55,691 nt of DNA from positions 5,061-60,751 of the forward strand of contig CAZFJK010000003.1 of assembly GCA_964519225.1 (NCBI GenBank), in the 5' to 3' direction. Origin of the DNA: an uncultured Methanosarcinales archaeon. GTDB taxonomy: Archaea > Nanobdellota > Nanobdellia > Woesearchaeales > B54-G15. The position numbers and the translations under genes were made by a program. Below the pieces are notes generated by a model, which had not been told where the DNA came from, did no database searches, and saw only the letters and a list, made by a program, of their open reading frames with translations. Below are positions 1 to 54,748 of the stretch, one piece after another (the first letter of the stretch is position 1; the number at the start of each line of letters is the position of its first letter).

Positions 1-479
1 ATTTGATCAAAGATGTATTGAGCTAGATCTTTTGTTGATTGATCGTAGATGAAAACATAAAGGATTTCTGGTGATGTTAGGACTAAAGCATTTGAGACAG
101 GAAAAGGAGCGTTGAATTGTAGAGTCCATGTGTAGAGGGTTTCATGAGTTAGTTCGGTTGGAGAAAAGAATATTTCTGTCGGTGTTTGAATATGAATCCC
201 AGTTCCTTTAACTGCATATTCTGAGTAAAGGGTGTTGGGATCGCAAATGAATTCAAGCTTTGCTTTTGGTAATTCCACTTTGTTGAAGGTTTCTTCGACT
301 GCCATTGCACCTGCTAGGATCGGCTGAAGGTCGGATAGGATTAAAGAAGCGATTTTGTATTCTGAGATCGTTTTTTGGTGTAGTGCTATTGAAATAAAGA
401 ATATTAAGATAAGAGTGCCTGCAATTAGAATGAATATCCAAAAGAAAACGTGCTGTACTTGAGCTTTTTTGTTTTTCAT
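1..479 (-). CDS. Hypothetical prepilin-like secreted protein, partial (3' end runs off the window)
   Basis: Not in the ORF track. My own translation from the ATG at 479..477 gives MKNKKAQVQHVFFWIFILIAGTLILIFFISIALHQ... and stays open to position 1. The N-terminus is a clear paralogue of the neighbouring 172-aa protein. Basic residues + A-Q + about 22 hydrophobic residues resembles an archaeal class III (prepilin-type) signal peptide. Confidence 0.6.
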   Translation of the reverse strand, partial: MKNKKAQVQHVFFWIFILIAGTLILIFFISIALHQKTISEYKIASLILSDLQPILAGAMAVEETFNKVELPKAKLEFICDPNTLYSEYAVKGTGIHIQTPTEIFFSPTELTHETLYTWTLQFNAPFPVSNALVLTSPEILYVFIYDQSTKDLAQYIFDQ

Positions 480-482
480 TTT

Positions 483-1001
483 TTATTTGACGTATATTCT
501 TGTTTTGTCTCCTCTTCCTTCGATTTTAAAATCGATTCTTCTGCGCTCTATTTTTAGGCAGGCAAATTGCTGTTCTTTGTTTGAAGTGCTGTTCCAGATT
601 TCAATCGGTCCGACAAAGATGCTGATTTCGGCTGGAGGTATTAAAAAGACATTTTCTGTTGAGTTATGGAGGTTTTGTTCGACGGCAGCTCTGATGTGAG
701 CGTATTCGTATTTTGAAGGGATGTCGCTTTTTTCTGCGTCTGGCGAGACAAAACAGACTTGGGAAAAGCCTGAAGGTACTCGCATTGGATTTTTTTCGTT
801 GAAAACTATTTGATCGCCGTACTGTATTGCTAAATCACGGATTGCGCTTTCTAGATCGTTCTTGAATTGAATTAACTCAACTTTTTTTCCTTTTTCAATG
901 AAGGAATGAATGGCTTTGTAGCCAAAGAGAAGGATTACTGCGAATATAAAGATTGCGACAATATAAAAAAATACACGCTGGATTTGGGCTTTTTTATTCA
1001 T
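483..1001 (-). CDS. Hypothetical prepilin-like secreted protein (172 aa)
   Basis: ORF track. N-terminus MNKKAQIQRVFFYIVAIFIFAVILLFGY (K-A-Q then a hydrophobic helix). Lies 2 nt downstream of the giant ORF and 3 nt upstream of its paralogue at 1..479. Confidence 0.65.
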   Translation of the reverse strand: MNKKAQIQRVFFYIVAIFIFAVILLFGYKAIHSFIEKGKKVELIQFKNDLESAIRDLAIQYGDQIVFNEKNPMRVPSGFSQVCFVSPDAEKSDIPSKYEYAHIRAAVEQNLHNSTENVFLIPPAEISIFVGPIEIWNSTSNKEQQFACLKIERRRIDFKIEGRGDKTRIYVK

Positions 1002-1003
1002 TT

Positions 1004-4000
1004 TTATTCAATGAGTTCCTTTAGATCTTCTAAGGCTTTTTTTCTTAGGGTTTTCTCCTTGAATTTTTTCTTAATTAGATCAGATAAGAGTTTGAATTCG
1101 TCTTCTGTTAATTTTTCTTTTTTTATGATCTCTCTTATTGGTTTTCCTGATTTTATTCTTTTCTCAATAAGCTCAGCGAGCTGTTTGAATTCTTCTTTCT
1201 TTAGTTTTTTTGGTAATAAGCGTTCGAGGAAACGGCTTTTTTCTTTTTCTATTTCTCGCTTGCGTTTTTCAGCAAGTTCGCGTCTTAGTTTTTCAAGTGG
1301 GGAAACTTCTCTTGGTTTTGGTATGGTTACGGGTCTATAAACTGGTGGAGGAATTTTAGGTTTTTTGAAGCGCGTAAAGAATGCAAAAATCTGTGTTTTG
1401 TATTTTAGAATGAGTAGAATCGCTGCGGCAATGATGGCTATAATCAAAATTATTAAGATGATCTTACCAAGGATTGGTCTTCTTGGAATTTCTGCTTTTG
1501 AACAACCATAGTGAGGTGAGGCTGGATTTTTGATTATGTAAGGAACTTCGCTTGGTGGTGTGTTTGGACATTTATCGAATTTGTCCGGTATTGTGTCGAG
1601 GTCTGCATCATTAAGCACAGTTGGATCTGTTCCTTTTCTGTACTCTTCAAGATTTGTATAGCCGTCGTTATCTGGATCAAGAGATGCATCACTCGGATCA
1701 TTAGGATTTAGATTGTATTTCAGTTCCCAGTAATCAGGCATGCCGTCTGCATCAGAATCGATTTCATCGGGCGCGCATCCGTAATGAGGAGAAGATTTGT
1801 TTATTTCGACTTCTGTTACTTTATCGCTCGGTGTGTTTGGGCATTTATCTTCTGCGTCTGGTATGCCATCGAGATCAGAGTCTTGAATTTTTATGACTTC
1901 AACGATTATTCTTTTGCTTCCATTTATTTGATTTCCAACAGTATCGGCAGCTGAGTAGCATAATACAGAAGTTTCTGATAGGAAGATTGTTCCAGCATAT
2001 TGTAGAGTAGGCGTACAATCTTGGGTTGTTTTTGATAAGCCATAATAAATTCCGTTGCAGCCGTTTTCATCCTGGCAAAGGATTTCAACATTTTTTCCAT
2101 TTGGAACCGGTGTTTCGATGATTGTTATGTTTGGTGGTCCTCTCTCTCTGCATTCCGGAGCTGTACTATTTAAAACAGTAAATGTTATGCTTGACCAATC
2201 TGAATAATGTCCTGCTGCATCTTTGCACCGTACTTTTAAAGTGTATTCTTCGTCTACATTTAGGAGAAGTCCGTCGATTAATGGGCTGTTCTGTGAAGAT
2301 GTTCCGTTAACTGAATAGTTCGTATTTGTAATCTGCCATTCGTAAAGCACTATAGCAGAAAGGTTGTCTGGATCTTCAGCTACGAATGTTGGATGGATTT
2401 GAGTTCTGTCGCAGGTTTTTTCTGCAAGCTGAATTGCTATGATTTTTGGCGGTGTTAAATCAATTACAATGTCAACAGGAATTGTTTGGGTTAAACCTGA
2501 TACGATAAATGTGCATGATACCTTATAAGGATATTTTCCCTCTTTTGGCTTATCAAACGTTGCTGAAAAGACTTGTGTGTTTGATTGAGGAAAGTCATAT
2601 GATGCGTTAAGTTCATCGATGTATTTACAATTTGCAGGAAGATTTGTTTCAACGTTGAGCGTTACTGTTGTTTTGTTTACGATTGGTTTTGCTGAGATTA
2701 TAACGCCCTGCCTTTTCTTATCGACTGTAAAAGTTAAAGTTACTGGAGCTGAGTCAAGTCCAGCGAGATTTCGGCAAACAACATAATATGTGTAGGTTGT
2801 TCTGTCTTTTAGTTGTGTTGTTGGAATTGATACTGTGTGGTTTGTTTTGTATAGACCAATGTGCCAGTCTGGGAATCCAGAACGCATTGAATCAAATTGT
2901 TTGGTATATAGGCTATACTTACAGATTGTTTCGTCGTCTGTTTCAACATTGAATACGGCATTTGTTGTTATTGCGCGTTGTTCTGAGCCCCATGGCGTTT
3001 CGCTTACGTACGCTCTAAGAATTTCTGGCGGGGTTGGATCGTATCTGATAAGGAATGCATGTTCTTTGCTTATGGTTCCATCTGGTTCTTTACACTGAAC
3101 GTTTAATAAGTATGTTTCGTATGGTTGCGTTTTTTGTGGATAATTTGCGCCGTCCGTTGGTTCGAATTGCTGGCCGTACCATACAGAGCGCGGAAAGTTT
3201 TCTATGTGAAATTCTGTCGGTGAATCTTTTTTGAACGGGGTACCAGAGTCATAGCTGAATGAAGTTGATGCGTATTTGCATTCCATGGCTGGTTTATCTG
3301 TTTTTATCTTAAGAGTGAATGCGGGTTTTGTGGAAACGCCGTTAGGAGGATACACTAAGCTTATTCCAAGAGGTTTGTTTATTGCGATAATGCCGCAGTT
3401 TGTTGATTCTTCATTGTCGCCGTTGTCGATAGATTTATAGCAGAAGGTTGTTGATGAATGAATTGGCAATTGGTCTGTGAATTGGGTTGATGGAGAACAT
3501 TTTTTGCCTAAATCTGTTAGGCAGTATAAAATTTCTTTACAGCCAAAGCCTGTTGCTGGAGCATCTCGGCATTGCGCCTTTACTGTTACTGATTCTGTAA
3601 ACGAAGGCCAATTTTCTGGTGTTGTTGCTGTAAAGGAGGTTGATGTTGTTTCCAAAAGAAGTATTGTCTTTGGCGGTTCAAAGTCGAGAGTGAAAAAGAT
3701 GTTTCTTTGCTTTTGTTGTTTTGTTGCGAGATCTGTGCATTTTACTGTGAACGGCATATAGAGGCCTGATCTCGTGTATGAGAATGTTGATGTTGATGTA
3801 TGGATTATGTTATCTGTTGTTGAAAATTTTTCAATAAAGGTATTGTTTCTATAAAGGGAGCAGTTTGCTTTTGCTGCTGTTTTAACCTGTACTGTGATTG
3901 TTCTCTCTTTTGTTACTCTTTTTGGTAGAAGCTGTATGATATAGGGGTCTTGTGCATCTATCTGTGCTGATGCTTTTGCTGTATTTCCAACGAGGTCCTT

Positions 4001-6685
4001 GCATGTTATTTCATAGGGATATATCTTAGGAGCTAAATCTGGATATATAATTGTTGTTGAATAATCGATTCTTTGATCTTGTAAGCCTTTAAGATTGTCT
4101 GTGCAAAAAACGATTTCATCTGAAAGTATTGTAATATAGGCTGTTGCGTTTGTGGGTGTTGGAAAAGCAACATCAGTAATAATTTGCAACGACGGCGGCT
4201 TTGTATCGATATAGATTTCTTTTGTTTTTATGTTCAGTTCTCTGTTTTTGTGCTTGTCAATAGCATAGAATGATACGAAGTACTTGTTGTTTGGTGATGC
4301 TGGAAAGCTTAATTTTGTTACATCAACTGATGCTTTTCCTGTTGAATCTGTTTTTATTTGGTTTGATGGAGTGCATTGAGCTGAAGGAGAAATGCAGTAA
4401 AAGATTGTTGATTCTGGTTCTGATTCAAATGAGATGATTGGATTTGTCGCTGTTACTTTTATCGTATTTACCTTTGTTTCTGGTCTTTTGTTATCTGCTT
4501 TGCATGTAAGGTCTGTTGGTGAGCAATCATCAATGTAATCTGCATTGCCGTCTTTTATGCATTTTGTTCCTGTCCAGCGGCAAGTTCCAAGGCGGCAGTG
4601 ATCTTTGCTCGGTGTGATTTGATTTGTTGTCGGATTAAGCAATGTTGTATCGCATGATTGCTCATCTGTGTAATCGTAACATGTTATGCCTGCTGTGCAT
4701 TTCAGACATGACTTTGTTGTTTGATCGTATCTGCATTTGCCGAGAAGTTGGCATTGCGATGGGGTGCATTCAGAAGCTAGAAAAGGTTGATTGCAAAGAT
4801 CGCATTTGTCTTCTTTTTCATAGCCAAGCTGCGTGCAGATTCCAAGACCAAGCTCTGGTACGATTGGAAGCCATTTGCACTTTCCAAAACCGCAGGCATC
4901 TTTTTGGCAAGCAAGTTCTGATTTATAATCAAAGCAGGAATGGATGTTATTGCATGATTGACATTTATATAGAAAATTAAATTTATCGTAATAGCAAAAT
5001 TGCTTTGCATGGCAGAGATTTGCATTGAAATACAGGCCGAATGGATCTGCTCCTAATGTAGAAGAATTGCATTCGCCTGGATCTATGCAATAGGTTATGC
5101 CAAAAGCATCTGGACCAAAGCAAGCAACTGAGCATGCTTCTATTTCTGATAGTTGATTTTGCTCTGTGCATTCATATCGCGATTTTCCTATGCAGAATTC
5201 TGTTGTTTTTCCTTCGCATTCAGCAGAACCTGTTTTTATAGTTGCTGTTGCTGGATCGCTTTCGCCATTCGGGTAGATCGCTTTTATTGAATAGGTGTAC
5301 TTTGTATTCCAATCTACATCTTTGTCGATGAACTGAAGCTGATTTGGATCTGAGATTGTTGCAATTTCAAAGAGTTCTCTGAAAATGCGATAGCCTAGAA
5401 CTGTTTCGCATGGTTTTTGCCATGTTAGGAGTACTGCTTTAACTCCGCGAATATGGTTTGCTGTGAATTGCTGCGGTTTGGTTAGTGTGAAATAGCTGCA
5501 ATTGGCACCGAAGGGAGTGAGGAGAATGTCTTTTGTAATTACGTCGTTTGGTAGGAGAAAAACGGTTTCTTGGGCTGGTTGGTATGAAGGTTTTTCGACT
5601 TTGATTTTATATTCGGTCCGGCCTGTGCTTTTAACAGGAAGTTCTGCTGAGAATCCTGTTGCAGTTGTACGGGTTTTTATTATGACTAGTTTATCTGTGC
5701 GGATAAAGGTTAATTCTGCAAGAGGAATATGCTGGGCTGTGATTGAATCGATGACATAGCCGCTTACGTTTGCTGTTGGTTCTTTTTTCAGAGTGAAGTT
5801 TATTTGGGTGTTGTTTGTTATTTTGATTGTTTTTGTTTGTAATTCAAAACCTGGATAAAATGCTTCGATTGAATAGGTATCTGGAACAAGTTGAATTGTA
5901 TAGTATCCTTTTGTGTCTGTTTTTGTTTTATATTGCGATTTAGCTGTTGCTGTTATTTCTGCCTGCTGGATTGGATTTCCTTTTTCATCTTTAACAAATC
6001 CTGAAAGCGTGACTGTTGGTAATGGAGTTAGCTGTATGTTGAAAGTGTTTTCTCCCGGTGAGAGTGTTTGAATAAAGTTTTTTGTTTCGTAGTTCTGAGC
6101 GCTTGCAACAATCGAGTATGTTCTTGCTAGAAGATTCTCAAAGCGATATTTTCCTGATGCGTCTGTTTTTGTGCTTAAACCATCGATGCTGATTGAAGCT
6201 GATGGAATTGGAGTTCCTGTTATTGCATTGACGACGGTACCTGAAATGTTTGCAAGTTTAGTTATTTGTTGCTGGCATATTGTTGCATCTCTGATCGATT
6301 CATTGAATGTTGCGTTGAATCCTGTAAAGGCGCTGCAGTATTGGTCGCATAAATAGCGTCTTGTTACTTTGTCTGGATGCAGGAAATGGGTTGTTCCGTT
6401 TGTGCAAATGCAGCAGCCGAGCTGACATTCTGGAACAAGGGGTGAATCGCAGCTTGTGATGTTAAGACCTGTGACGTTAATGAAAGCGGTTGGGCAGGAT
6501 GTTGTATCAGGGAATAGCAGGCAGAAGGTTGAAAGATCTGCTGGATCAAAACAGCAGTATTGGGCGTTTGTTTTTAGTGAGATAGCTAAGAAAAAGAGAA
6601 CTGCGACTATAAAAAACACACCTCTTTTTCTCATCAGGTTTTTTATTTTGTTTGTTTTATATAAGGTTTGTGTTATGTTTTGCAT
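1004..6685 (-). CDS. Giant (1893 aa) multidomain Cys-rich surface protein with a C-terminal TM anchor and a charged cytoplasmic tail
   Basis: Uninterrupted 5.7 kb ORF. The real start is probably M18 (6634), giving MRKRGVFFIVAVLFFLAISLKTNA as a signal sequence. Three carboxypeptidase-regulatory-like beta-sandwich repeats (ISGTVVNAITGTPI..., LSGFVKDEKGNPI..., VSGYVIDSITAQHI...; approx 5513..6247). Very Cys-dense central region (approx 4490..5235). Thrombospondin-type-3-like Ca-binding repeats (DSDLDGIPDAEDKCPNTP, DSDADGMPD, DPDNDGYTNLEEY, DADLDTIPDKFDKCPNTP; 1475..1882). TM helix ILGKIILIILIIAIIAAAILLIL (1406..1474). 133-aa K/E-rich tail (1007..1405). Confidence 0.85.
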   Translation of the reverse strand: MQNITQTLYKTNKIKNLMRKRGVFFIVAVLFFLAISLKTNAQYCCFDPADLSTFCLLFPDTTSCPTAFINVTGLNITSCDSPLVPECQLGCCICTNGTTHFLHPDKVTRRYLCDQYCSAFTGFNATFNESIRDATICQQQITKLANISGTVVNAITGTPIPSASISIDGLSTKTDASGKYRFENLLARTYSIVASAQNYETKNFIQTLSPGENTFNIQLTPLPTVTLSGFVKDEKGNPIQQAEITATAKSQYKTKTDTKGYYTIQLVPDTYSIEAFYPGFELQTKTIKITNNTQINFTLKKEPTANVSGYVIDSITAQHIPLAELTFIRTDKLVIIKTRTTATGFSAELPVKSTGRTEYKIKVEKPSYQPAQETVFLLPNDVITKDILLTPFGANCSYFTLTKPQQFTANHIRGVKAVLLTWQKPCETVLGYRIFRELFEIATISDPNQLQFIDKDVDWNTKYTYSIKAIYPNGESDPATATIKTGSAECEGKTTEFCIGKSRYECTEQNQLSEIEACSVACFGPDAFGITYCIDPGECNSSTLGADPFGLYFNANLCHAKQFCYYDKFNFLYKCQSCNNIHSCFDYKSELACQKDACGFGKCKWLPIVPELGLGICTQLGYEKEDKCDLCNQPFLASECTPSQCQLLGKCRYDQTTKSCLKCTAGITCYDYTDEQSCDTTLLNPTTNQITPSKDHCRLGTCRWTGTKCIKDGNADYIDDCSPTDLTCKADNKRPETKVNTIKVTATNPIISFESEPESTIFYCISPSAQCTPSNQIKTDSTGKASVDVTKLSFPASPNNKYFVSFYAIDKHKNRELNIKTKEIYIDTKPPSLQIITDVAFPTPTNATAYITILSDEIVFCTDNLKGLQDQRIDYSTTIIYPDLAPKIYPYEITCKDLVGNTAKASAQIDAQDPYIIQLLPKRVTKERTITVQVKTAAKANCSLYRNNTFIEKFSTTDNIIHTSTSTFSYTRSGLYMPFTVKCTDLATKQQKQRNIFFTLDFEPPKTILLLETTSTSFTATTPENWPSFTESVTVKAQCRDAPATGFGCKEILYCLTDLGKKCSPSTQFTDQLPIHSSTTFCYKSIDNGDNEESTNCGIIAINKPLGISLVYPPNGVSTKPAFTLKIKTDKPAMECKYASTSFSYDSGTPFKKDSPTEFHIENFPRSVWYGQQFEPTDGANYPQKTQPYETYLLNVQCKEPDGTISKEHAFLIRYDPTPPEILRAYVSETPWGSEQRAITTNAVFNVETDDETICKYSLYTKQFDSMRSGFPDWHIGLYKTNHTVSIPTTQLKDRTTYTYYVVCRNLAGLDSAPVTLTFTVDKKRQGVIISAKPIVNKTTVTLNVETNLPANCKYIDELNASYDFPQSNTQVFSATFDKPKEGKYPYKVSCTFIVSGLTQTIPVDIVIDLTPPKIIAIQLAEKTCDRTQIHPTFVAEDPDNLSAIVLYEWQITNTNYSVNGTSSQNSPLIDGLLLNVDEEYTLKVRCKDAAGHYSDWSSITFTVLNSTAPECRERGPPNITIIETPVPNGKNVEILCQDENGCNGIYYGLSKTTQDCTPTLQYAGTIFLSETSVLCYSAADTVGNQINGSKRIIVEVIKIQDSDLDGIPDAEDKCPNTPSDKVTEVEINKSSPHYGCAPDEIDSDADGMPDYWELKYNLNPNDPSDASLDPDNDGYTNLEEYRKGTDPTVLNDADLDTIPDKFDKCPNTPPSEVPYIIKNPASPHYGCSKAEIPRRPILGKIILIILIIAIIAAAILLILKYKTQIFAFFTRFKKPKIPPPVYRPVTIPKPREVSPLEKLRRELAEKRKREIEKEKSRFLERLLPKKLKKEEFKQLAELIEKRIKSGKPIREIIKKEKLTEDEFKLLSDLIKKKFKEKTLRKKALEDLKELIE

Positions 6686-8652
6686 TCTGCTCTAATGCCA
6701 AAGAATCCAGATGAGCAAGTTCCTTGACGCCAGGCTCCTTGGACAAGTTTCTTACATGGTTTTCCGCTGTCGCCAAAGCGGCAGTTGCAATGATCTTGTT
6801 CATTGAAAATGCCATCTCCGTTAGAATCCACCACTTCAGTAGTACAAAGTTTTTGACATCCTCCTTTTCCATAGCACCAACCTTCTGAAGTAAGCGAATA
6901 CGCTTTTTCTCCAACGCATGCAGAAGCTCCAAAACAGCACGTGTCTGAAGTTCCTATGATTTCGGTTTTTCCAAGGCATGCATTTCCAGTTGAGCCATCG
7001 CAATAGCGGATGATGTTGTAGCAATGCAGGTTTGAGGTGTTGTATGGTGCATTTTGTAAAGTGTTTGGACCTGAATAGCAGATTGTTGTGTTTGGAGCTA
7101 TTGTAAAATCGTCTCTGCAGCATGAATGATTTCCAAGGTATTCTGGACCGAAAGGAAATGGTGGTAAAGAAGAACGATGGGGTAAACATTGCTTTATTGT
7201 TAAAGTTGAAAAAGTATTATATGTTTGGTTGTAGCTTGAGTAGAATAAATTTGCTTTTAGAAGAGCTATACATGTTGAATTAGGCGTGCATGCATCGAAT
7301 AATTTAGTGATTTGATTTGGCTGGAGTTCTGTTATGAATTGGCTTGTTGTTACGTTAAGTACTGTTGTAGCATCTTTTTTTATTGTCCAATAAAAAAGAT
7401 ATTTGGCTTTACTGTCTAACGTTAGGTTTTTTGGTTTTGCTATGAGAAAAACAGGATCTTCGGGAGAAAGAATGTTGCTTGGAATTGTTGAATAGTTTGC
7501 TGTGATGTTTGCACTGACAATTAATTTTGGATCGACAAGTATTCTGACTAATTGAGTATCATTTAAATTATGCTCATCGTATATTGTGAAAGTGAGATTG
7601 TGATAACCTAAAGAAGAAGGAAGCGATGATGGAAAGGATTTATTTATGCTGTCCTCATCAGGATCTGCATATGAGATGTTCAGGCCGTCTATGGAAAGGT
7701 TTTCGCCTTCTATGATCAGTACGTCATAGGTATCATCGTCTTGCTTTTGAGGATATCTATTTATGTAGCTCAATATTGGGGGTCTGTTTTCTCTTGCAAA
7801 TTGGAATATAAGAGGTTGGTTTTTTATTGTGTAAAGATCATCTTTGATGATGAAAATATCAGTGTCGGTGCTTCCTTGTTGTTTAATTATTGTTAGATTT
7901 CCTTCTAGAAGATATCTTCTTAAATTTTCTTTCAGTGTTGCTGTAAGGTTTGATGTGGCGTTTGTCCAATCTGAATGGATGCTGTCCCTCAGGATTAAAT
8001 AAATATAGTATAATCTTGTTTTAACTTCAACCCAAGGGGTGTTTTCGAGAATAGGAATTTCTTCTCCCTTTAAGCGAGCAGAGAGAACAAATTGAAGTTT
8101 TGCTCTTACTGATGTCCTTAAGAGTTTAACAACAGGTTTTATTGTCGTTATGCTGAGATCATAGCCTGTCACTGATTTTAGAGCTGTTATGTTAATACAC
8201 TGGATTGCGTTTTCTTCTAGGTATTTTCTTATTTCGCTAGTTATCGATGGTAGGGTTCTTTTACCGAAAAAAACAGGTTCGGGTTGATCGAGTTTGAATC
8301 TGCAATAATCTGGTTCAGGATATGCTTTGGTACAAGGGTAATCTTCAGGAATTGGTTGTTGTATTGTAATTAAGATAGAAACGTTTTCGTTATTGAATAG
8401 AATTGAGTTTGTTGGTTTATATTGGCCTCCTCTTCTTGATATAGTCAGGATTGCATCCTCTAAAGTCGATCTCAGGCATTCTTCTGTGAAGAATTTAAAG
8501 GCTGAAACCGACATTGCTCTTTTTATAACTTTCTGAACTTCTCGGCTTGCTTTTTGTTCAGCGGTTTGTTCTGCAAGGTAGAATAATAAGAAGAAGGTTA
8601 TAATGATTGTGAAGCCTAGAACAATGAATATGGTGATTTGTGCACGACGCAT
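6673..8652 (-). CDS. Hypothetical 659-aa surface protein: prepilin-like N-terminus plus a Cys-rich C-terminal module
   Basis: ORF track. The N-terminus MRRAQITIFIVLGFTIIITFFLLFYL fits the class III signal pattern [KR][GA][Q][ILVTAS]x3 + hydrophobic stretch. The last ~170 aa are Cys-dense (HSCCRDDF, CYNIIRYCDGSTGNAC, DTCCFGASAC, DSNGDG). Overlaps the downstream giant ORF by up to 13 nt and sits 1 nt from the upstream gene. Confidence 0.8.
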   Translation of the reverse strand: MRRAQITIFIVLGFTIIITFFLLFYLAEQTAEQKASREVQKVIKRAMSVSAFKFFTEECLRSTLEDAILTISRRGGQYKPTNSILFNNENVSILITIQQPIPEDYPCTKAYPEPDYCRFKLDQPEPVFFGKRTLPSITSEIRKYLEENAIQCINITALKSVTGYDLSITTIKPVVKLLRTSVRAKLQFVLSARLKGEEIPILENTPWVEVKTRLYYIYLILRDSIHSDWTNATSNLTATLKENLRRYLLEGNLTIIKQQGSTDTDIFIIKDDLYTIKNQPLIFQFARENRPPILSYINRYPQKQDDDTYDVLIIEGENLSIDGLNISYADPDEDSINKSFPSSLPSSLGYHNLTFTIYDEHNLNDTQLVRILVDPKLIVSANITANYSTIPSNILSPEDPVFLIAKPKNLTLDSKAKYLFYWTIKKDATTVLNVTTSQFITELQPNQITKLFDACTPNSTCIALLKANLFYSSYNQTYNTFSTLTIKQCLPHRSSLPPFPFGPEYLGNHSCCRDDFTIAPNTTICYSGPNTLQNAPYNTSNLHCYNIIRYCDGSTGNACLGKTEIIGTSDTCCFGASACVGEKAYSLTSEGWCYGKGGCQKLCTTEVVDSNGDGIFNEQDHCNCRFGDSGKPCKKLVQGAWRQGTCSSGFFGIRAECKT

Positions 8653-8653
8653 T

Positions 8654-11600
8654 TTAAATAGGAGTGAGTTTGATTAACTGGTTCCATACATCTGGATTGA
8701 AGCTTAGGATTGTTTGCTCTGTTGCTGTGGCGTTGCAGAAGGTTTGAGGTATGTTTTTAAGAGAATCGCATATTTGTGCTGTTATGTTTTCTAATCTTGC
8801 AACAATGTAGGTTTCATTTGCTCTTGTCTCTTTTAATGCAAGGATTTGCTTGTTTTGTGATTTTGCAATAAATAATGCATCGTAATTTTGATGGGTTTCG
8901 ATCGATGAGAGACTGACGAGGTTTCCAAGCATTGTTTTGGGTTTCCATGTTCCTGTTATGAATTGTATTATCGATTTAAATATATTAAATAAACGTGAGA
9001 AAAATCCGCGCTGCATTGTTATGCCCTGTTTTGAATAAAATACCGCATTCAGCTGACGATCGTACCAAATGCGTTTGTCATTGCTGCAAGTGTCAAAATC
9101 AACGACGTTATTGCAATAGGTTGTTGGTAAATCTAAAGCGTAAAGGAAAGAGTATTCTGAATCGTTGATTGGTTTGTTGAGCGAAACAGCGAATAATGTT
9201 TTTTCCTTTCCTGCGTCAATGAATTTAAGAACGCAGAAGTTATTTACGCAAGGTACTGGTGTTGTGAAATTAAAGCATGTTGGCGGTACTGCTGGAAAAA
9301 GAGATTCTCCTTGAATATACTTAAGCTTTAATGTTGGTTCTGGTAGTGTTGTTTTGAAATCGTCGCACAGTAAAGTGAATTCGTTTGCTGTTGTTGTAAG
9401 ATTAAGAAGGACCGATGCAAGAGTTCTTGTTCTTGTGCGCCATTCGCCGTTATAGCACAGATGATCAAAGATATACTGGCTGTGGTTTATACATATTGGA
9501 TTGTCTTTGTAGCCCGGATCTGGTGAATATGTCTCTGGTTTGTTGAAGTTGTCTGGATTTCCGTTAGGATCAACTAAACATTGTTCTGGATAAGGGCAGT
9601 AAGCTGATTGGTTTGAAAGCCAGTCGTATTTAAGAGGCGCAGCAATCCATTTTCCGTAAACACAACGATATGTTTTTCCTGAAATGTTGTATGTTTGTTG
9701 AGGTTTGTCGTGTAAAGATGCTAGACACATAGAGCCGTTCCAGCAAAATAGCGGATGACAGCAGCTTTTTGTTTTTTTGTCAGGATCATAGGAAGTTGTG
9801 TTTCTTTCTGATGCAGGTGTTCCTGAGAATGCGTCACTCCAGCTTTCTTCATAGGAACAGAAGTAGTTTCCAAAGGTAGTGCATGGTTCTGATTTTTTGG
9901 TTTTTGCTGGAAGGGGAAGCGTTGAAACTAGATTTTGGCAGTAGTAGAACTTTTTATTTGAATACAGGACATCGCGTTTAATTTCTTCTAATTCAGATGA
10001 GTAGATTGTTTCTGTTGGTTTTCCTTGGATTGCTGTTTGCATAATGAAGATTGATTTTGAACAGAATGGTTCTTTGCAAGCAATAGGTTTTTTGAAATTG
10101 CCTTTTGTTTCTGTGAAAAATGCTGATTCGTTTTCTAAGATTGGTAAGCCATTGATGCAAGCTCCTTTTTCGTCTGCGTATGATTGTGTTTCGTTGTAGC
10201 AGCATTTAGTGCCTGTCCATGTATAAAGATTTGAGCAGACGGTTTCTGAATTTTCTAATTTTTCTGGTGATATCCAGTAATCGTGAGTTTGAGCAAATTC
10301 ATCTGTGCAGAAAAATAAGGGTTCTTTTGTTTCGAGGTATATGTTTTTCACTTTAAGCTTGAGGGGTTCTGTCATAGCAGTAACATTTGTATAAAAAATG
10401 ATCTGATCGATATCTGTTGGATTTACGTTATGCAGAGGGATTTCGATTCTTATCCATTTTCCTGTTTTTACCTCGCGTGCAAATGCGAAGATCGGACCTC
10501 TTATGAGAATGTCTAAATTATTGACATTTGTTGCCATGCCTGACGCAAGTAGAACTTCTGTTACTGGTTTGACTGAAGATATGTTTATGAAGAAGATAAG
10601 ATATTCGGAAGGAGGGCTTGAATTAATGTTTAGAGAAATGCTTTTGTATGCTGAAATTGTTTCGTCTGAGATATGAGGGGTGATATCTTTAAAATATTCG
10701 TATGTGAATGAGTAATTGTTTCTATCAATAATCGTGATTGGTTCTGCTCGGTAGATTGCTTGAGTATATTGCTCTGGATACCTGTGTTTGCTGTAGCATG
10801 TTTCGCCTGGAATGCAGCATTCGTAGAATTTTTGATTGTAGCAAATAAATCTGTAAGATTCTCTAGTTCCAGATAAGATTGTTCTGTCTGGTATGCCTGT
10901 ATCTGCTGTTGTGTTGCATAAGTACCATCTTGCACCGTTTGAGATGTATTGTTTTTTATTGAATTCATATATTTTGAAGGGTTCCTGACCTGCTTGATGC
11001 CAGATAGAGCCGTCGCAAAGGAATTCGTAATCAGAAATATCTTTTAGTCCTTTTGGAGAAAGTTTTCCTTTGTTTTCTGGATAGCAGCAGTATTCGTCAA
11101 AGGAACCTGTTTGAGGAGCATTTGGAAGCCATTCGCCATCCTCTAATTGGCATTGCGCGTAGCCTTTGAATTTTCTATAACCAATAATGAAGCGTGTTTC
11201 GTCGTTTGTTGAACCGCCAAGTTCTAAGCCGACAATTGCTGCATCGTCGTATTCAACAAAAACCCGGGCTTGGTAAAAGGATTTATCTGCGCCAGCTGAT
11301 GATGCGTCCTTAACTGAAGAAAGACTGCAATCAGGGTTTAATTCTCTGTAAGAATACCAAAATGAATCAAAGCGTCCTTTATGAAAATCAAATCCAAAGC
11401 CAACAAGAAAAGCGTTTTCAGGCAATTGGATATTGAATGGAAATTTATATTTTAGTGGTACGAGTGTGGGCCCTGGAACAAGAGAATAACATTTTCCTTT
11501 GTTTGTCCATTTTTTTATGCCGAGTTTGCATGTGCCTGTTGTTTCATTATAGATCAGTTCTGCATATTGGATTCCTTTGTCTCGGCTGAAGCCCGTTATG

Positions 11601-11767
11601 ACATAAGGTTTATCAGTTGGGATTTGCTGGTATTCACAATACGTTCTTGCGAAAGCGCTCTTTTTTGTTTCTTTTACTGATGCTTCTAAGAAAGCTATTG
11701 ATAGTTGGGCTGTGATGATCAAGAGCGTTGCGAGTATAAATAGATGAATAAAACAGTTTTTCTTCAT
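8654..11767 (-). CDS. Hypothetical 1037-aa secreted Cys-rich protein
   Basis: ORF track (the track starts at a GTG at 11773; an ATG at 11767 gives MKKNCFIHLFILATLLIITAQLSIAF, a Sec-type signal). Many Cys residues, often as CC/CxC pairs. I recognise no enzymatic motif. First gene of the tightly packed 5-gene minus-strand cluster. Confidence 0.8.
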   Translation of the reverse strand: MKKNCFIHLFILATLLIITAQLSIAFLEASVKETKKSAFARTYCEYQQIPTDKPYVITGFSRDKGIQYAELIYNETTGTCKLGIKKWTNKGKCYSLVPGPTLVPLKYKFPFNIQLPENAFLVGFGFDFHKGRFDSFWYSYRELNPDCSLSSVKDASSAGADKSFYQARVFVEYDDAAIVGLELGGSTNDETRFIIGYRKFKGYAQCQLEDGEWLPNAPQTGSFDEYCCYPENKGKLSPKGLKDISDYEFLCDGSIWHQAGQEPFKIYEFNKKQYISNGARWYLCNTTADTGIPDRTILSGTRESYRFICYNQKFYECCIPGETCYSKHRYPEQYTQAIYRAEPITIIDRNNYSFTYEYFKDITPHISDETISAYKSISLNINSSPPSEYLIFFINISSVKPVTEVLLASGMATNVNNLDILIRGPIFAFAREVKTGKWIRIEIPLHNVNPTDIDQIIFYTNVTAMTEPLKLKVKNIYLETKEPLFFCTDEFAQTHDYWISPEKLENSETVCSNLYTWTGTKCCYNETQSYADEKGACINGLPILENESAFFTETKGNFKKPIACKEPFCSKSIFIMQTAIQGKPTETIYSSELEEIKRDVLYSNKKFYYCQNLVSTLPLPAKTKKSEPCTTFGNYFCSYEESWSDAFSGTPASERNTTSYDPDKKTKSCCHPLFCWNGSMCLASLHDKPQQTYNISGKTYRCVYGKWIAAPLKYDWLSNQSAYCPYPEQCLVDPNGNPDNFNKPETYSPDPGYKDNPICINHSQYIFDHLCYNGEWRTRTRTLASVLLNLTTTANEFTLLCDDFKTTLPEPTLKLKYIQGESLFPAVPPTCFNFTTPVPCVNNFCVLKFIDAGKEKTLFAVSLNKPINDSEYSFLYALDLPTTYCNNVVDFDTCSNDKRIWYDRQLNAVFYSKQGITMQRGFFSRLFNIFKSIIQFITGTWKPKTMLGNLVSLSSIETHQNYDALFIAKSQNKQILALKETRANETYIVARLENITAQICDSLKNIPQTFCNATATEQTILSFNPDVWNQLIKLTPI

Positions 11768-11810
11768 TTTCACCTCTTTTTATTGTTTTGTTAAAAGGAG
11801 TGAAAAGGAT

Positions 11811-11818
11811 TATATAAA
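11811..11818 (-). promoter_or_regulatory. Candidate TATA box for the surface-protein operon
   Basis: The minus strand reads TTTATATA about 44-51 nt upstream of the ATG at 11767. It lies just after the stop of the upstream Rpp30 gene. Confidence 0.35.
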
Positions 11819-11820
11819 CC

Positions 11821-12483
11821 TTATTCAACGAGTTCTATTCCTTTTGCTATAAAAGTTGGTGATTTTCTTTTGCGATTGAATTTTATTTTTTCTACCAATG
11901 TTTTGTAATTTTGTTTTGTTTCTTTTGGAGTAAGCTGGAATAGGTTAAAGAAGCTTATTACGTCGTGAAAATAAAGCATTTCTAAAGGATGGTTTGCAAA
12001 ACTTGCCATAATAACTGGAACGTGATATTTTTTGCATAGTATGATGTTCTGCGCTATTCTTCCAAGCAGAATGGATTTTTGCTTTGTATTGAGGATTGAG
12101 CGATTTATGCAAAGGAATTTTTCTTTTTTTGCAAGAATCTTAACGAGAACTTGATTTAAACCGCTTGCTCTAAAATGAAGCGGATCTTTTGATTCAAGGG
12201 TTTCGATGTTTGTTATGATGTCGCAATTTGCTTTCTCAATAAAAATGCGAAGGTTCTGCTTTGATGGAACAGCAATGACAAGATCTGCAAGCTTTGATGC
12301 TTTTTTTGCCTGGTTCGGTTTATTGATGATTATTGCTGAAGCGATATTTATGCTGTTTTCAGTAAATTTTAGTTCTTTAAATTCATTGAAAGGATAAGCA
12401 AAAACGAGCCATTTATAAGCAAAACGTTTAGCAAATGACAGGAATTCTTTCTCATTGTTTTTTGGAGAAACGATGTCGAACAT
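11821..12483 (-). CDS. rnp3: RNase P protein component 3 (Rpp30-like)
   Basis: 220 aa. The pattern ...CDIITNIE...PLHFRASGLNQVLVKILAKKEKFLCINRSIL...ILLGRIAQNIILCKKYHVPVIMASFANHPLEMLYFHDV matches my recollection of archaeal Rpp30 TIM-barrel proteins. Motif recall only. Confidence 0.6.
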   Translation of the reverse strand: MFDIVSPKNNEKEFLSFAKRFAYKWLVFAYPFNEFKELKFTENSINIASAIIINKPNQAKKASKLADLVIAVPSKQNLRIFIEKANCDIITNIETLESKDPLHFRASGLNQVLVKILAKKEKFLCINRSILNTKQKSILLGRIAQNIILCKKYHVPVIMASFANHPLEMLYFHDVISFFNLFQLTPKETKQNYKTLVEKIKFNRKRKSPTFIAKGIELVE

Positions 12484-12506
12484 GTGCTTTTTGAGTGTTT
12501 GTTTTC

Positions 12507-12515
12507 TATATAAAA
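12507..12515 (-). promoter_or_regulatory. Candidate TATA box for rnp3 (implies a leaderless or near-leaderless mRNA)
   Basis: The minus strand reads TTTTATATA, with its proximal edge 24 nt upstream of the start codon at 12483. Confidence 0.35.
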
Positions 12516-12536
12516 GTTGCTACGAATTTGTTATAT

Positions 12537-12640
12537 TTCCACTGGAAATAAAGGGGTGTTAGTCGTTTTGATTTAAAGTTCCAAAGGAAATGAAGGGGTT
12601 TTAAAAATGAATTATATAAATTCCAAAGGAAATGAAGGGG
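12537..12640 (+). repeat. Three direct ORB-like (origin recognition box-like) 20-bp repeats with an exact 42-bp period
   Basis: TTCCACTGGAAATAAAGGGG at 12537..12556, TTCCAAAGGAAATGAAGGGG at 12579..12598, and an identical copy at 12621..12640. Each has a TCCAnnGGAAA dyad followed by a G-string, as in archaeal Orc1/Cdc6 binding sites. Confidence 0.6.
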
Positions 12641-12791
12641 AGTAGAGATTTTGGCTTATATTTTAGGTTCTCTTTATTTTTAAATACATAAATTTAAATA
12701 AGTTTTTGCTTTATAAATAAAAGATGTGAAAAGTCCAATCTAATGCTTTTTAAGCTAAATGGAAAGAAAATATTTGGTTTGGTGGTAAAGA

Positions 12792-13364
12792 ATGCCTAAA
12801 AAAAGGAAAAAAATAGGTAAAAAGGAAATACATGTTGTTAATATTGTTGTAAGCACTTCTTTGGAGCATGATATACCGTTAGAGAAGATGGCTGCAACAC
12901 TTTCTAATACAGAGTATAATCCTGAGCAGTTTCCTGGTCTTGTGCTTAGGATTAAAGAGCCTAAAACAAGTGCTTTGATATTCAGCAGCGGAAAGGTTGT
13001 TTGCACAGGAGCGAGGAGCATGGATAAGGTGGAAGAGAGCATAAAGAAGATAATAAAAAGTTTGGAGAAGATCAATATAAAGATCAAGATAAAGCCTGTG
13101 ATTAGCATTCAGAATATTGTTGCAAGCGGCAGCGTTGGAATGGATTTGAATTTGAATGATCTGGCAATGAAGTTACCTAATACAGAATACGAACCTGAAC
13201 AGTTTCCCGGTTTGGTTTTTAAGCTGCCTGGAACAAGAGCAACGTTTTTGCTTTTCTCGAACGGAAAGATTGTCTGTACTGGAACAAAGAGCGAAAAGGA
13301 AGTGCATGAAAGCTTGGATAAGCTGATTGAGGTTTTGAAGAAAGCAAAAGGGATTAAGCGTTAA
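12792..13364 (+). CDS. tbp: TATA-box binding protein
   Basis: Two internal TBP repeats: NIVVSTSL...EYNPEQFPGLVLRIKEPKTSALIFSSGKVVCTGARS and NIVASGSV...EYEPEQFPGLVFKLPGTRATFLLFSNGKIVCTGTKS. GGTGG lies 7 nt upstream of the ATG. Confidence 0.95.
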   Translation: MPKKRKKIGKKEIHVVNIVVSTSLEHDIPLEKMAATLSNTEYNPEQFPGLVLRIKEPKTSALIFSSGKVVCTGARSMDKVEESIKKIIKSLEKINIKIKIKPVISIQNIVASGSVGMDLNLNDLAMKLPNTEYEPEQFPGLVFKLPGTRATFLLFSNGKIVCTGTKSEKEVHESLDKLIEVLKKAKGIKR

Positions 13365-13370
13365 ATCGAG

Positions 13371-13382
13371 TTTTTTATTTTT
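13371..13382 (+). terminator. Oligo-T tract downstream of tbp (possible archaeal terminator)
   Basis: TTTTTTATTTTT begins 7 nt after the tbp stop codon. Confidence 0.3.
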
Positions 13383-13421
13383 GATTTAAAAAAAGAGGTG
13401 TTTCTGAACTATTTTGGTTAG

Positions 13422-16400
13422 ATGAAAATGGAGGTGAGAGAGTTAATTGATAAAATAAAGGAATTTTTTGAATTGTTTTATTTTGATAGGATTCTTGAAA
13501 AAGCAAGGAAGGGTGAGAAAAGTTTTCAGGTTGATTTTTCTGACCTGTTGAAGTTTGATTCTGAGCTTGGTGAAATGGTTTTGGATGATCCAGAAGAATT
13601 ATTGAAGTGCTTTGATCTTGCTGTGAAGGAGCTTGGGTTTGAGTTAAGGGTTAGGTTTTTTAACCTTCCTTTAAGCAGCTATATGCTGATCAGAAATATA
13701 AGAAGTAAAGATATAGGTAAGTTTGTTGCGATTGAAGGCGTAGTAAGGCAGAAAAGTGATGTAAGGCCGCAGGTCACAGCTGCAAGATTTGAATGTCCTA
13801 GTTGTGGCAATGTGATAAATGTTTTACAGCTTGATACGAGCTTTAAAGAGCCAAATAGGTGTAGTTGCGGCAGAAAAGGAAGATTCAGATTGCTTGGAAA
13901 GGAACTGGTTGATGCTCAGGGACTGGTTCTTGAAGAATTGCCAGAACATCTTGAAGGAGGAGAGCAACCTAAGAGAATTAAGGTTTTTCTTAAGGATGAC
14001 TTGGTAAGTCCTATGACAGAGAAGAGAACAAATCCTGGAAGCAGAATAGTTGTAATTGGTGTAATTAAGGAAGTGCCGATTGTTTTGAGAGGCGGCGTAA
14101 AGAGCACAAGGTATGATTTAATGGTCGAGGCAAACAATGTTGAGTTTGTTGAAGAAGATTTCTATTCGCTTGAGATTACAAAAGAGGAGGAAGAACAGAT
14201 AAAAGAACTTGCAAAAGATGAATACATTTATGATAAACTTGTTGAGAGCATAGCACCATCGATTTATGGTTATGAAAAGATGAAGGAGGCGTTGGTTCTG
14301 CAATTATTTGGCGGTGTAAGAAAAACAAGGAAAGACGGTGTTGTTTCAAGAGGGGATATCCATATTCTGCTTATTGGCGATCCTGGTGCAGGAAAAAGTG
14401 CTCTTTTGAAAAGAATGGTACTGGTTGCGCCAAAAGCAAGATATGTAAGCGGAAAGGGTGCGACGGGTGCAGGTTTATGTGTTGGTCCGGATAGTTTTGT
14501 GATTACAAATTCAGGATGCATTTATAGAATTGAAGAATTAGTTGAAGAAAAATTAAATGGAAATAAGAAAAGATTTGAGGAGGGGATCTGGCAGGCTAAG
14601 GATCCGAATGATGGTAGGAAGGTTTTAAGCTTGGATAAAGACTTGAAGCTGAATGAAAGAAAGATAAGTCAATTTTGGAAGCTTGAAGCTCCGCATGAGC
14701 TGGTACGTTTGATTACGCAAAGTGGAAAAGAATTGATTGTGACGCCAGAAACGAGATTGCTTACGCTGGAAAATGGTTTTGTTTGTTGGAAAAAAGCAAA
14801 GTCGTTTAAAGAAGGTGATTGTCTTGCAACTGCGCGAGAAATTGAAACAAGTGAAGTAATCAACGATGTTCTTGTTGTTGATTTGATTGAGAGCAATCCG
14901 CTTGTTTATGGTGTTGGCGATCATGTTAAGAAAGCGATAGATATTATTGCAAAAAAGTTTGGTTCTAAACGAGATGCTGCTAGAAAGCTTGGTTTGAGCG
15001 AAAATCAGCTCTATGTTTGGTTTGGAAAGTGCCCGCCCAAAGGAATACATTTGAAGAAACTTAAGAAATTAGTTGATGCGGCTGGGTTGGATTGGAAAGA
15101 AGTTGTTAAAGATATTGTTTATCTCTCATTGTATAGGGGCCGTAAAATAAAGATTCCATATGCTTTAAATAAAGAATTGTTGTATTTTGCCGGGCTTGTC
15201 GCTGGTGATGGCGATCTCTCAAAAGGCAAGTGTAGCATAGCTATCCGATTTTCGAATAGCTCAGAAGAATTACTAAACCGATTTTCAGCATTAGCTGAGA
15301 GATTGTTTGGTGTAAAGTGTAACAGAACCGAAAAGAGCATGCATAGGCCTGCTGCGGTTAGATTTTCATCGAAGATTGTTTTTGAGATACTCAATAAGCT
15401 GGGCATACCTGCATCGCCTAAATCAGGAAAGATTGATTTGAGTAACGTTCTTCTAGGACTTCCTAATGAGTTGGTTTCGGCATTCCTATCAGGGCTTTTT
15501 GATAGCGATGGGTATGTTGTTGACAGAAAAACAAGAGGAAGTTCTTATGTTGGATTTGTAACAACGAGTAAAATTTTAGCATATAAATTACAATTAGTTC
15601 TGTTGAGGTTCGGGATACACGCAAAGATAAGAAAAAGAAATGCGAATCCGAATATCAAAGTAAAATCTAAGTTGGATAAGTATGAAATTACAATAAAGGG
15701 AAAAGAAAATTTAGAACAATTTGAGAAGAGGATTGGATTTAAATCCAGTGAGAAGAAAGCAAAACTAAGGAAGATTATTAAAAAGATTGGAAGATCAAAT
15801 ACTAATGTAGATTTAATTCCCGGGGTGCAAAACAAAGTTATAGAAGCAAAAATCTGTGCTGGTATTTCTTCTAAACAATTATTTGGTTATAAGAGTTCTA
15901 GTTATAGTTTGAAGGAGAAGGAGAGACTTCAGCGAATTGCTAATAAATTGAACGATAGGCATCTTAAGAAATTAGCTTATTCAGATATTTTCTGGGAGAA
16001 GATAACAAAAGTTGAGATGATACGTAATAAAATAAAATATGTATATGATCTTACTGTTGATGATGCACATAATTTTCTAGTGAATGGTTTCATTGTTCAT
16101 AATACTGCTTCTGTAACAAGAGATGAGTTCCTGAAAGGATGGAGCCTTGAAGCTGGTGCGATGGTTTTGGCGAACGGTGGTTTATGCGCTATTGACGAAT
16201 TGGATAAGATGAGTCAAGAGGATAGGGCTGCTATGCATGAAGGACTGGAGAATCAAACAATAACTATAAGCAAAGCAAACATCCAAGCAACGCTTATTGC
16301 AAGAACGACTGTTCTCGCTGCTGCTAATCCAAAGTTTGGGAGATTTGATCCATATGATATAATTGCTAAGCAGATTGATTTGCCACCGACTTTGATTAAT

Positions 16401-17911: not shown

Positions 17912-17984
17912 AGATTGTTTGTTTTTGGTATTTATATAAAATTTTTGGACAATATTTTTAAATGAGAAATGAGGTTTCTAACGT

Positions 17985-18395
17985 ATGGACTACAAAGCTC
18001 TGTTGGAAAAGGCAAGAAAGGAATTACCTGAGACTGTTAAGGTTAATGTAAAAAGGTTTGAGATTCCAAAAGTTAAAGGCCATATTGAAGGAAATAAAAC
18101 AATCATTAGTAATTTTCATCAAATTGCTAGTTATCTTCATAGAAAGCCTGAACACCTGTTAAAGTTTTTGTTGAGGGAGCTTGCAACGCCTGGTGAGCTT
18201 ACAAAGAATGGTGCTGTTCTTGGTAGAAAAATTGGAGCTGACAAAATTAATCAAAAAATAGAGGAATATGTTAAGGAATTTGTGGTCTGTCCTGAATGCA
18301 AAAGGCCGGACACAAAATTGGTTAAAGAAGACAGGTTTACTTTTATGCACTGTCTTGCGTGCGGTGCAAGACATCCAGTAAGGCAACTAAAATGA
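17985..18395 (+). CDS. eif2b: Translation initiation factor aIF2 beta subunit
   Basis: 136 aa. C-terminal zinc ribbon CPECKRPDT...CLACGA and the typical ...GNKTIISNF..IA..L.R.PEHLLKFLLRELAT.G core. Confidence 0.85.
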   Translation: MDYKALLEKARKELPETVKVNVKRFEIPKVKGHIEGNKTIISNFHQIASYLHRKPEHLLKFLLRELATPGELTKNGAVLGRKIGADKINQKIEEYVKEFVVCPECKRPDTKLVKEDRFTFMHCLACGARHPVRQLK

Positions 18396-18682: not shown

Positions 18683-18727
18683 ATATTGGGGTGTAAATTA
18701 GATTATTATAATCATGATTACGAAGCG

Positions 18728-52919: not shown

Positions 52920-52929
52920 AGGTTTAGCA

Positions 52930-53049: not shown

Positions 53050-53050
53050 A

Positions 53051-54747: not shown

Positions 54748-54748
54748 G

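Follow-up and report, generated by a model that had tools for sequence, protein, structure and literature searches.

Within a 55,691-nucleotide (nt) stretch of archaeal DNA (contig CAZFJK010000003.1 of assembly GCA_964519225.1, positions 5,061 to 60,751; hereafter the window), we analyzed a minus-strand operon of at least seven conserved genes, named A to G, which extends beyond window position 1. Five of them (B, D, E, F and G) encode pilin-like proteins, and the other two (A and C) encode large, Cys-rich proteins with Sec-type signals. On balance, we think that the operon is probably a minor-pilin set, acting at the tip or in priming, together with the adhesins of a type IV pilus-like filament. 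Attachment to other cells is thought to be the way of life of DPANN archaea, yet for most of their lineages the contact molecules are unknown; to our knowledge, Woesearchaeota have no cultured representative. The operon is conserved across the clade and combines the two kinds of protein expected of an attachment device. The analysis defines seven gene families by their boundaries and signatures, predicts where each pilin-like protein is cleaved, and names candidate shaft pilins (Table 1).

A conserved seven-gene operon

A preliminary description of this DNA had listed five minus-strand genes as an operon. All five open reading frames (ORFs) lie where it placed them, the fifth running off the window as <1..479, and the operon continues beyond them. 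The Logan contig L001, which is 99% identical to the window and runs past position 1, carries the entire gene E followed by F and G, which encode two more proteins with a KAQ N-terminus.

The genes are tightly packed, with 1 nt between A and B, 2 nt between C and D, and 3 nt between D and E, in keeping with the spacing of -13 to +3 nt given earlier. Only the B–C junction is sensitive to the choice of start codon: the 13-nt overlap holds for a start of C at 6685, whereas a start at 6634 leaves a 38-nt gap. All C homologues begin with M.KRG followed by a hydrophobic stretch, and in the closest relatives the gene is called from the codon that corresponds to Met18. C thus most likely starts at Met18 (position 6634), which gives a protein of 1876 instead of 1893 amino acids (aa).

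The box that had been noted upstream of the operon is the octamer TTTATATA. The RNase P p30 gene upstream ends in a stop codon directly before the box; 43 nt separate the box from the ATG of A, and a GAGGTG Shine–Dalgarno-like motif lies in this interval. The window contains 11 copies of the octamer where 3.9 would be expected; most of them lie upstream of genes, and the one before A is the sole minus-strand copy within 1..11818. Given this enrichment, the location before genes and the lone minus-strand copy, it is plausible that a single promoter at this putative TATA element serves the whole gene block. A scan for sigma-70 promoters and terminators was uninformative, the host being an archaeon.

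Table 1 Coordinates and N-terminal sequences of the operon genes and associated features. Positions refer to the window unless a contig or locus is named; a slash marks the predicted cleavage site.
Feature	Position	Strand	Product or sequence	Family N-terminal signature
Gene A	8654..11767	minus	1037 aa; candidate secreted adhesin	
Gene B	6673..8652	minus	659 aa; "modular pilin"	[KR][GA]Q[IV]T.F[IM]ILG
Gene C	1004..6634 (6685 alternative start)	minus	~1876 aa; candidate membrane-anchored giant adhesin or envelope protein	
Gene D	483..1001	minus	172 aa; pilin-like; MNKKA/QIQRVFFYIV...	KK[GA][QM]..Q.F.[FY]I
Gene E	1..479	minus	343-aa pilin-like protein, truncated by the window edge after 159 codons; MKNKKA/QVQHVFFWIFILIAG...	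[KR][GA]Q....F.WI[YF].LIAGA
Gene F	on L001, off-window		156 aa; pilin-like; MVVRKSTKA/QIKVTE...	[KR][GA]Q..M[TS]ET; Glu (+6) invariant
Gene G	on L001, off-window		164-167 aa; pilin-like; MKNKA/QTEAIGL...	[KR][GAS]Q[MV]E..GL; Glu (+3) and Gly (+6) invariant
TTTATATA box	11811..11818	minus	putative archaeal TATA element of the operon (sequence read, octamer enrichment)	
Small class-III-signal-like protein	51503..51829	plus	108 aa; candidate major pilin; MLGKKG/QGLPITVIIIAAIALVIL..., KKG/QGLPITVIII...	
Small Cys-containing class-III-signal-like protein	51813..52076	plus	87 aa; second candidate pilin; ..ARKG/QATVLRILVIAVLLL.., RKG/QATVLRI...	
Extra protein between B and C	L016 12503..13759; L022 3598..4704; L026 13849..15018; L030 12577..13590; L035 12547..13476; L080 6843..7934		310-420 aa, Sec signal	

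To follow the operon in other genomes, we collected relatives of B. A word-indexed protein search returned 11; a pattern scan of one genome per species, based on a six-sequence alignment, returned 134, and 80 loci were kept. When the seven operon proteins were compared by BLAST with all ORFs of these 80 loci, the order A-B-C-D-E-F-G was found on one strand in about 47 informative loci of Woesearchaeota and Nanoarchaeota, with one exception. All seven genes are present in 9 loci, and B, C, D and E in 19; contig ends cut most of the remaining loci. Median intergenic gaps are again short (C–D 8, D–E 5, E–F 1 and F–G -4 nt), and orthologues in syntenic loci share only 21–35% identity. The suggestion of a single unit is thus borne out: the genes are tightly packed and their order is conserved in relatives. 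Members of the D family occur in 2736 representative clusters at E ≤ 1e-3, and in 1808 at E ≤ 1e-10, among 1.84 billion representatives (clusters at 50% identity). Every match to an operon protein that bears a source name is annotated "hypothetical protein", and in the literature that we searched, itself incomplete, we found no paper describing the A–G operon.

Pilin-like and large extracellular products

At their N-termini, B, D, E, F and G read RA/Q, KA/Q, KA/Q, KA/Q and KA/Q, respectively, followed by about 20 hydrophobic residues (window and L001), and hydrophobic windows lie within residues 6–34 in all five. Archaeal class III signals have, within the first ~5–35 residues, a basic residue at -2, Gly or Ala at -1 and a defined residue at +1; these positions are reported to matter for archaeal signal peptidase III, the basic -2 residue being the archaeal hallmark (PMC3387779). 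The termini MRRAQITIF (B), MNKKAQIQRV (D) and MKNKKAQVQHV (E), from which class III signals had first been proposed, read as described, and the signal features, which F and G share, are kept in orthologues at 21–35% identity: across five separate families, [KR][GA]Q occupies -2, -1 and +1, with Ala and Gly exchanged at -1 while Gln stays. The class III motif followed by a hydrophobic stretch was present in 69 of 75 B, 11 of 25 D, 16 of 23 E, 12 of 14 F and 8 of 11 G family ORFs, the failures being mostly other accepted variants, such as KKG/M, or miscalled starts. We predict from these sequences that the signals of B and D–G are cleaved after the Gly or Ala. F and G additionally have a conserved N-terminal Glu, which is found in none of B, D and E.

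Profile–profile comparison found the five families alike only in their N-terminal 30–60 residues, with a best hhalign probability of 87% (D versus E), while their globular parts showed no similarity (probabilities ≤0.3%; D versus E, 0.1%). Similarity limited to the N-terminus is the usual pilin pattern, and it means that the resemblance between D and E, once described as two small paralogues, ends after the first ~60 residues; beyond these, they are not detectable as paralogues. An AlphaFold model of D (87 sequences; predicted local distance difference test (pLDDT) score 95.9) has a single helix of 57 residues, spanning residues 3–59, followed by an antiparallel β-domain, in which a near-invariant pair of cysteines, C83 and C148, is found across the family. 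The mature α1 helix of ~54 residues in this model equals the canonical pilin length. D is thus predicted to have the "lollipop" topology of a pilin, in agreement with its initial assignment as a pilin-like subunit.

B is built on a larger scale. Its AlphaFold model (pLDDT 67) is good for residues 1–485 and places two helices (2–47 and 50–73) before an α/β domain and immunoglobulin (Ig)/cadherin-like β-sandwiches, whereas the Cys-rich C-terminus is modeled without confidence. The β-sandwich region contains invariant NR.P.L.Y and DPDED motifs, and residues 489–657 hold 12 invariant Cys; no cadherin match was obtained for B in Pfam. Taken together, B, D, E, F and G are pilin-like by signal and topology, and they are assigned to no known pilin family.

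The three large proteins stand apart from the rest of the window in composition. With 41 (A), 24 (B) and 73 (C) cysteines, they reach 3.6–4.0% Cys compared with 1.56% in 40 other window ORFs, and N-glycosylation sequons number 1.3–2.9 per 100 aa compared with 0.34 in the other ORFs. This enrichment fits extracellular, disulfide-bonded glycoproteins. A and C have Sec-type signals with short n- and h-regions and an A-x-A-type site, and conservation begins at a GC[CYF] motif. The n-region of these signals keeps K[KR]RG, which alone is enough for the class III rule at -2 and -1, and some fit a FlaFind-type pattern by eye, so that prepilin peptidase may process A and C as well. For the same reason, we tried and rejected the relaxed class III motif as a discriminator, since it also matches these Sec signals.

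A consists of a variable N-terminal half and a conserved Cys/Trp-rich C-terminal part of ~550 aa, with all invariant Cys and Trp positions within residues 498–864 and no C-terminal membrane anchor. Its length ranges from ~400 to 2000 aa across loci, and in single homologues the variable part matches Laminin_G_3 or a disaggregatase repeat, and in two a MopE metal-binding motif. In C, the Sec signal is followed by a Cys-rich N-terminal domain, three CarboxypepD_reg domains, fn3, a Cys-dense region, Ig-like repeats and TSP3 repeats; a transmembrane helix (residues 1725–1743) and a Lys/Glu-rich cytoplasmic tail of ~130 aa complete the protein. β-sandwich modules (CarboxypepD_reg, PEGA, Big, SpaA-like and fn3) are found across the C family, and the anchor with a tail of 115–241 aa is present in at least 12 homologues, with conserved tail positions in the family consensus. 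C itself matches TSP3_bac at E 2.6e-4, below the Pfam cut-off; 4 of 21 homologues match it too, with a best E-value of 2.3e-11. C also has weak NCBIfam matches to the thrombospondin-type-3 protein MtsD and to lanmodulin. The evidence for Ca-binding ectodomains therefore consists of motifs (the TSP3 repeats in C and the invariant DPDED in B), and the original statement was too strong. No S-layer, enzyme or DUF2341/PilY family was found among the Pfam and NCBIfam matches of A and C or among the matches listed for 21 homologues of each; A has no Pfam family at E ≤ 0.1. Together with sequence searches of the PDB, these results leave the large proteins without a match to the S-layer or enzyme families that had been named beforehand as a possible objection. 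The proposal that pilin-like subunits carry or tether giant ectodomains survives for B, which joins a pilin head to a large ectodomain. It finds no support for A and C, which have ordinary Sec-type signals, and C is held not by a pilin but by its own C-terminal transmembrane helix.

Small pilins are linked to the operon in some genomes. In L020, L040 and L042, pilin-like ORFs of 73–117 aa with KKG/Q or KKG/A signals lie directly downstream of G, and the small ORFs after G are homologous to the 108- and 87-aa candidates of the window (Table 1).

These two candidates are part of a plus-strand cluster of small class-III-signal-like ORFs at 51503..55210, which also includes ORFs of 244 (MLYLNKRG/QAKFLV..), 113 (..MKKG/MLPLQLVV.., with a DCDCDG motif) and 153 aa (MKKG/AIPLRF..). 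A 462-aa protein with 15 Cys lies amid the cluster. The 108-, 244-, 462- and 153-aa ORFs gave no significant Pfam match.

The minor-pilin reading and its rivals

If the operon is a minor-pilin set with adhesins, its products could work together as follows. A prepilin peptidase encoded elsewhere would cut B and D–G after the Gly or Ala, leaving Gln as the new N-terminus, and the retained hydrophobic helices of the five proteins would bundle into a small pilin complex. In bacteria, the FimU–PilVWX–PilY1 and GspHIJK complexes prime filament assembly and sit at the tip; by analogy, we propose the same for this complex in a type IV pilus-like filament. The shaft would consist of the small 73–117-aa pilins, whose genes adjoin the operon in some genomes and lie at 51.5 kb in the window. 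As a modular pilin, B would contribute Ig/cadherin-like and Cys-knot-like modules. The conserved C-terminal domain of A would serve for docking, and its variable N-terminal part, lectin-like in some homologues, would be presented. C, a ~2000-aa β-sandwich glycoprotein in the membrane of its own cell with a conserved cytoplasmic tail, may serve as a co-adhesin or envelope partner.

The machinery for building such a filament would have to come from elsewhere. As initially stated, the window encodes no assembly ATPase, platform protein or peptidase (no match to T2SSE, T2SSF or Peptidase_A24). Loci with a type IV pilus ATPase and TadC have been reported to be conserved in Woesearchaeota, Pacearchaeota and Nanoarchaeota (PMC11291902), and it is therefore reasonable to suppose that such machinery would act in trans on the operon products in this genome.

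Several results weigh against our reading. No assembly ATPase, platform protein or peptidase was found within 10 kb of the operon in any of the 80 loci, so that, with none of the machinery in the window either, dependence on type IV pilus machinery is an assumption. This negative rests on a motif scan, which gave no secretion-ATPase motif, and on a Pfam scan of the P-loop and polytopic neighbors, which match other families, among the families listed (25 of 44, the remainder with at most one member each). In the PDB, profile searches with B, D, E, F and G retrieved neither a solved pilin or archaellin nor any other chain, and searches with single proteins and family profiles were negative for these five and for A; Pfam and NCBIfam gave no significant match for the same six (sub-threshold NCBIfam matches only, E ≥ 0.035). 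Structure comparison was no more informative: a Foldseek search of the D model against the PDB gave no significant match (best E 0.4), and the B model returned only generic tandem-Ig matches, including complement C3 (template modeling (TM) score ~0.15) and protocadherin extracellular cadherin domains (E ~1e-6, TM 0.15–0.2), which we did not read as homology. Under the strict FlaFind pattern, taken as [KRDE][GA][ALIFQMVED][ILMVTAS]x3, 67 of 75 B sequences match, among them that of the window (MRRA/QITIFIVLG), compared with 5 of 23 E sequences (the window's E not among them) and no D, F or G sequence. The conservation of the motif in B is moreover partly circular, because B's N-terminal motif was one of the two search patterns that retrieved the loci. 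Finally, a transmembrane helix of its own suits C better as an envelope protein than as a pilus-borne adhesin.

In a rather unlikely alternative, the operon is a cell-envelope module: C would be the major envelope or S-layer-like glycoprotein, and the pilin-like proteins would form a short, membrane-embedded stalk, like a pseudopilus or bindosome, that organizes A and C or anchors them at the surface, with no long filament. The Sec signal, glycosylation sequons, β-sandwich arrays, C-terminal transmembrane helix and tail of C are compatible with such a role, and Makarova et al. interpreted large proteins with a C-terminal anchor, encoded in type IV pilus loci, as S-layer-like (PMC4858521). Archaeal class III signals also occur on non-filament "bindosome" proteins (bioRxiv 10.64898/2026.04.22.720090), and the operon, near-universal in the clade and often amid housekeeping genes, never adjoins an assembly ATPase. 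However, A and C match no S-layer family; 73 Cys and a conserved cytoplasmic tail of about 130–240 aa would be unusual for an S-layer protein; a separate S-layer candidate follows the operon in three loci (see below); and small shaft-type pilin genes lie directly after G in three genomes. Those adjoining genes, with their homology to the window's small pilins, also speak against a still less probable explanation, that the [KR][GA]Q termini are uncleaved signal anchors and that B and D–G are ordinary type II membrane proteins, which form a surface complex with A and C and have nothing to do with type IV pili. It would account for the few E and absent D, F and G members under the strict FlaFind pattern, for the missing structural and sequence matches to known pilins, for the fit of the relaxed motif to the Sec signals of A and C, and for the lack of a nearby peptidase. 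Yet five unrelated globular families share one N-terminal design, in which the small -1 residue and Gln at +1 are kept at 21–35% identity; a mere anchor would not be so constrained. In the D model, moreover, one helix of 57 residues connects the membrane segment with the globular domain without a break, as it does in pilins.

A type II secretion-like pseudopilus, with the pilin-like proteins acting as a piston that exports or exposes A and perhaps other cargo, seems very improbable. Five pilin-like genes, one of them larger and some with a conserved Glu, recall GspH-I-J-K, and A has no anchor. Its own Sec signal would already take A outside a single-membrane cell, though, and archaea of this kind are not known to have an outer membrane to cross; nor is a secretin or ATPase linked to the operon. 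We also considered the MoxR/vWA "putative secretion system" (arCOG01314/arCOG02487) and the DPANN dark-matter family NEQ255 (PMC5898192, PMC6393860); the secretion system was set aside, as its described components, a MoxR ATPase and a vWA protein, are unlike those of the operon.

The minor-pilin reading also finds its closest parallels in described systems. The literature describes archaeal type IV pilus loci that combine at least five minor pilins with two large adhesin-like proteins and Cys-rich components, for example the Methanococcus Epd or "system 1" loci and those of Thermoproteales clades 4E/4G (PMC4858521; bioRxiv 10.64898/2026.04.22.720090), so that calling the operon an undescribed apparatus went too far. 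Like these loci, it encodes at least five class III proteins with unrelated globular parts beside two large secreted proteins, one of which is anchored by a C-terminal transmembrane helix, and many conserved cysteines; "system 1" loci are, moreover, reported in DPANN. It differs in that none of the examined loci has an ATPase, TadC or peptidase within the operon or close to it, in that Pfam revealed no DUF2341/PilY-type domain in A or C, in that the seven families have no Pfam model apart from the generic β-sandwich domains of C, and in its gene order, which is specific to Woesearchaeota and Nanoarchaeota. The type IV pilus loci that Hamm et al. 2024 described in DPANN archaea of the same lineages encode CpaF, TadC, PilA/FlaF and coiled-coil proteins (PMC11291902). 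They are defined by ATPase, TadC and coiled-coil proteins, and the A–G operon lies outside their description; they are the likely source of assembly machinery in trans.

The likeness to bacterial priming or tip complexes (FimU-PilV-PilW-PilX-PilE with PilY1 in type IVa pili, and GspH-I-J-K in type II secretion) is one of functional analogy only, as no sequence or structural homology was detected. It lies in an operon of four to five pilin-like genes beside a large non-pilin protein, in the variable N-terminal and conserved C-terminal parts of that large protein, in Ca-binding-type motifs in the adhesive proteins, and in an N-terminal Glu kept by only some subunits. By contrast, the A–G signals are of the archaeal type (basic -2, Gln +1), the sequence of A gives no evidence of a β-propeller, and the membrane anchor of C has no counterpart. 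B, with its pilin head and Ig/cadherin-like and Cys-rich modules, also resembles the modular pilins PilB and PilC of Streptococcus sanguinis (PMC9934059), in which a functional module is grafted onto a pilin; the modules and the domain of life are different and there is no homology, and B's place in a filament is our proposal.

We therefore see the A–G operon as a widespread DPANN variant of a known archaeal layout, minor pilins with large adhesins, and not as a categorically new apparatus. What is new is that the seven genes form a fixed module, found specifically in Woesearchaeota and Nanoarchaeota and separate from the assembly genes, and that six of the families have no Pfam or PDB relative. 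If the tip-complex reading is correct, the principle of minor pilins priming or capping a filament extends from bacteria to archaea. A bolder and less likely version makes A–G the lineage-defining host-contact organelle of Woesearchaeota and Nanoarchaeota, a minor-pilin tip complex that presents two giant disulfide-rich glycoproteins to the partner cell, with the conserved cytoplasmic tail of C coupling contact to the cell interior. If true, this uncultured DPANN clade would have its first defined attachment machinery, and archaea their first counterpart of the bacterial pilus tip complex, one with no detectable homology to characterized pilins.

Operon variants, host and neighborhood

The operon also occurs in a reduced form. 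In L054, L068 and L088 (about 9990..19400), a B of ~280–290 aa and a C of ~1230 aa, the latter apparently split into two ORFs in L054, precede D, E, F and G. This form lies directly downstream of a gene that is PCNA-like, judged by its N-terminal sequence, and is followed in all three loci by a protein of 700–790 aa with a Sec signal, a candidate S-layer protein. Between B and C, some genomes carry an additional Sec-signal protein with ~16 Cys (Table 1), a relative of the Cys-rich domain at the N-terminus of C (GCF.YPES..YCQ). In L001 (6319..6712) and L002 (20159..21983), G is followed by a protein of 86–90 aa with 13 Cys and a lipobox-like LAAC/LTAC motif; an ABC ATPase and permease come next. 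Of the loci examined, only those of the closest relatives showed this tail of lipoprotein-like gene and ABC transporter.

The host is a DPANN Woesearchaeote, as both its genes and its relatives indicate. A Pfam-type scan of the window ORFs identified archaeal neighbors (TBP, MCM, RFC, PolD DP1 and DP2, Cdc6, TFE, Hjc and a tRNA-splicing endonuclease), and all relatives of the operon proteins that bear names come from metagenome-assembled genomes of Woesearchaeota, Nanoarchaeia or Pacearchaeota. Many third-party-assembled genomes with the Woesearchaeota-type operon (L012-L015, L018, L019, L021, L024 and others) are titled "uncultured Methanosarcinales archaeon", which looks like a labeling artefact and not the true taxonomy. 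A mobile or viral origin of the operon was considered in passing, with no dedicated search; the GC content, which is even along the window, and the housekeeping neighbors speak otherwise.

Elsewhere in the window, a stand-alone Cas4/PD-(D/E)XK nuclease gene lies at 33924..34721 (minus strand); the other scanned window ORFs gave no cas-family Pfam match, and no search for repeats was made. Two adjoining plus-strand ORFs of ~320–330 aa, at 29348..30343 and 30354..31307, have lipoprotein-like N-termini (..LVCGGC.. and ..ILGC..) and no Pfam match even at E ≤ 1. Inteins, recognized by matches to Intein_splicing and LAGLIDADG_3, are present in MCM (13422..17060, plus strand) and in the RFC small subunit (31308..33563, minus strand).

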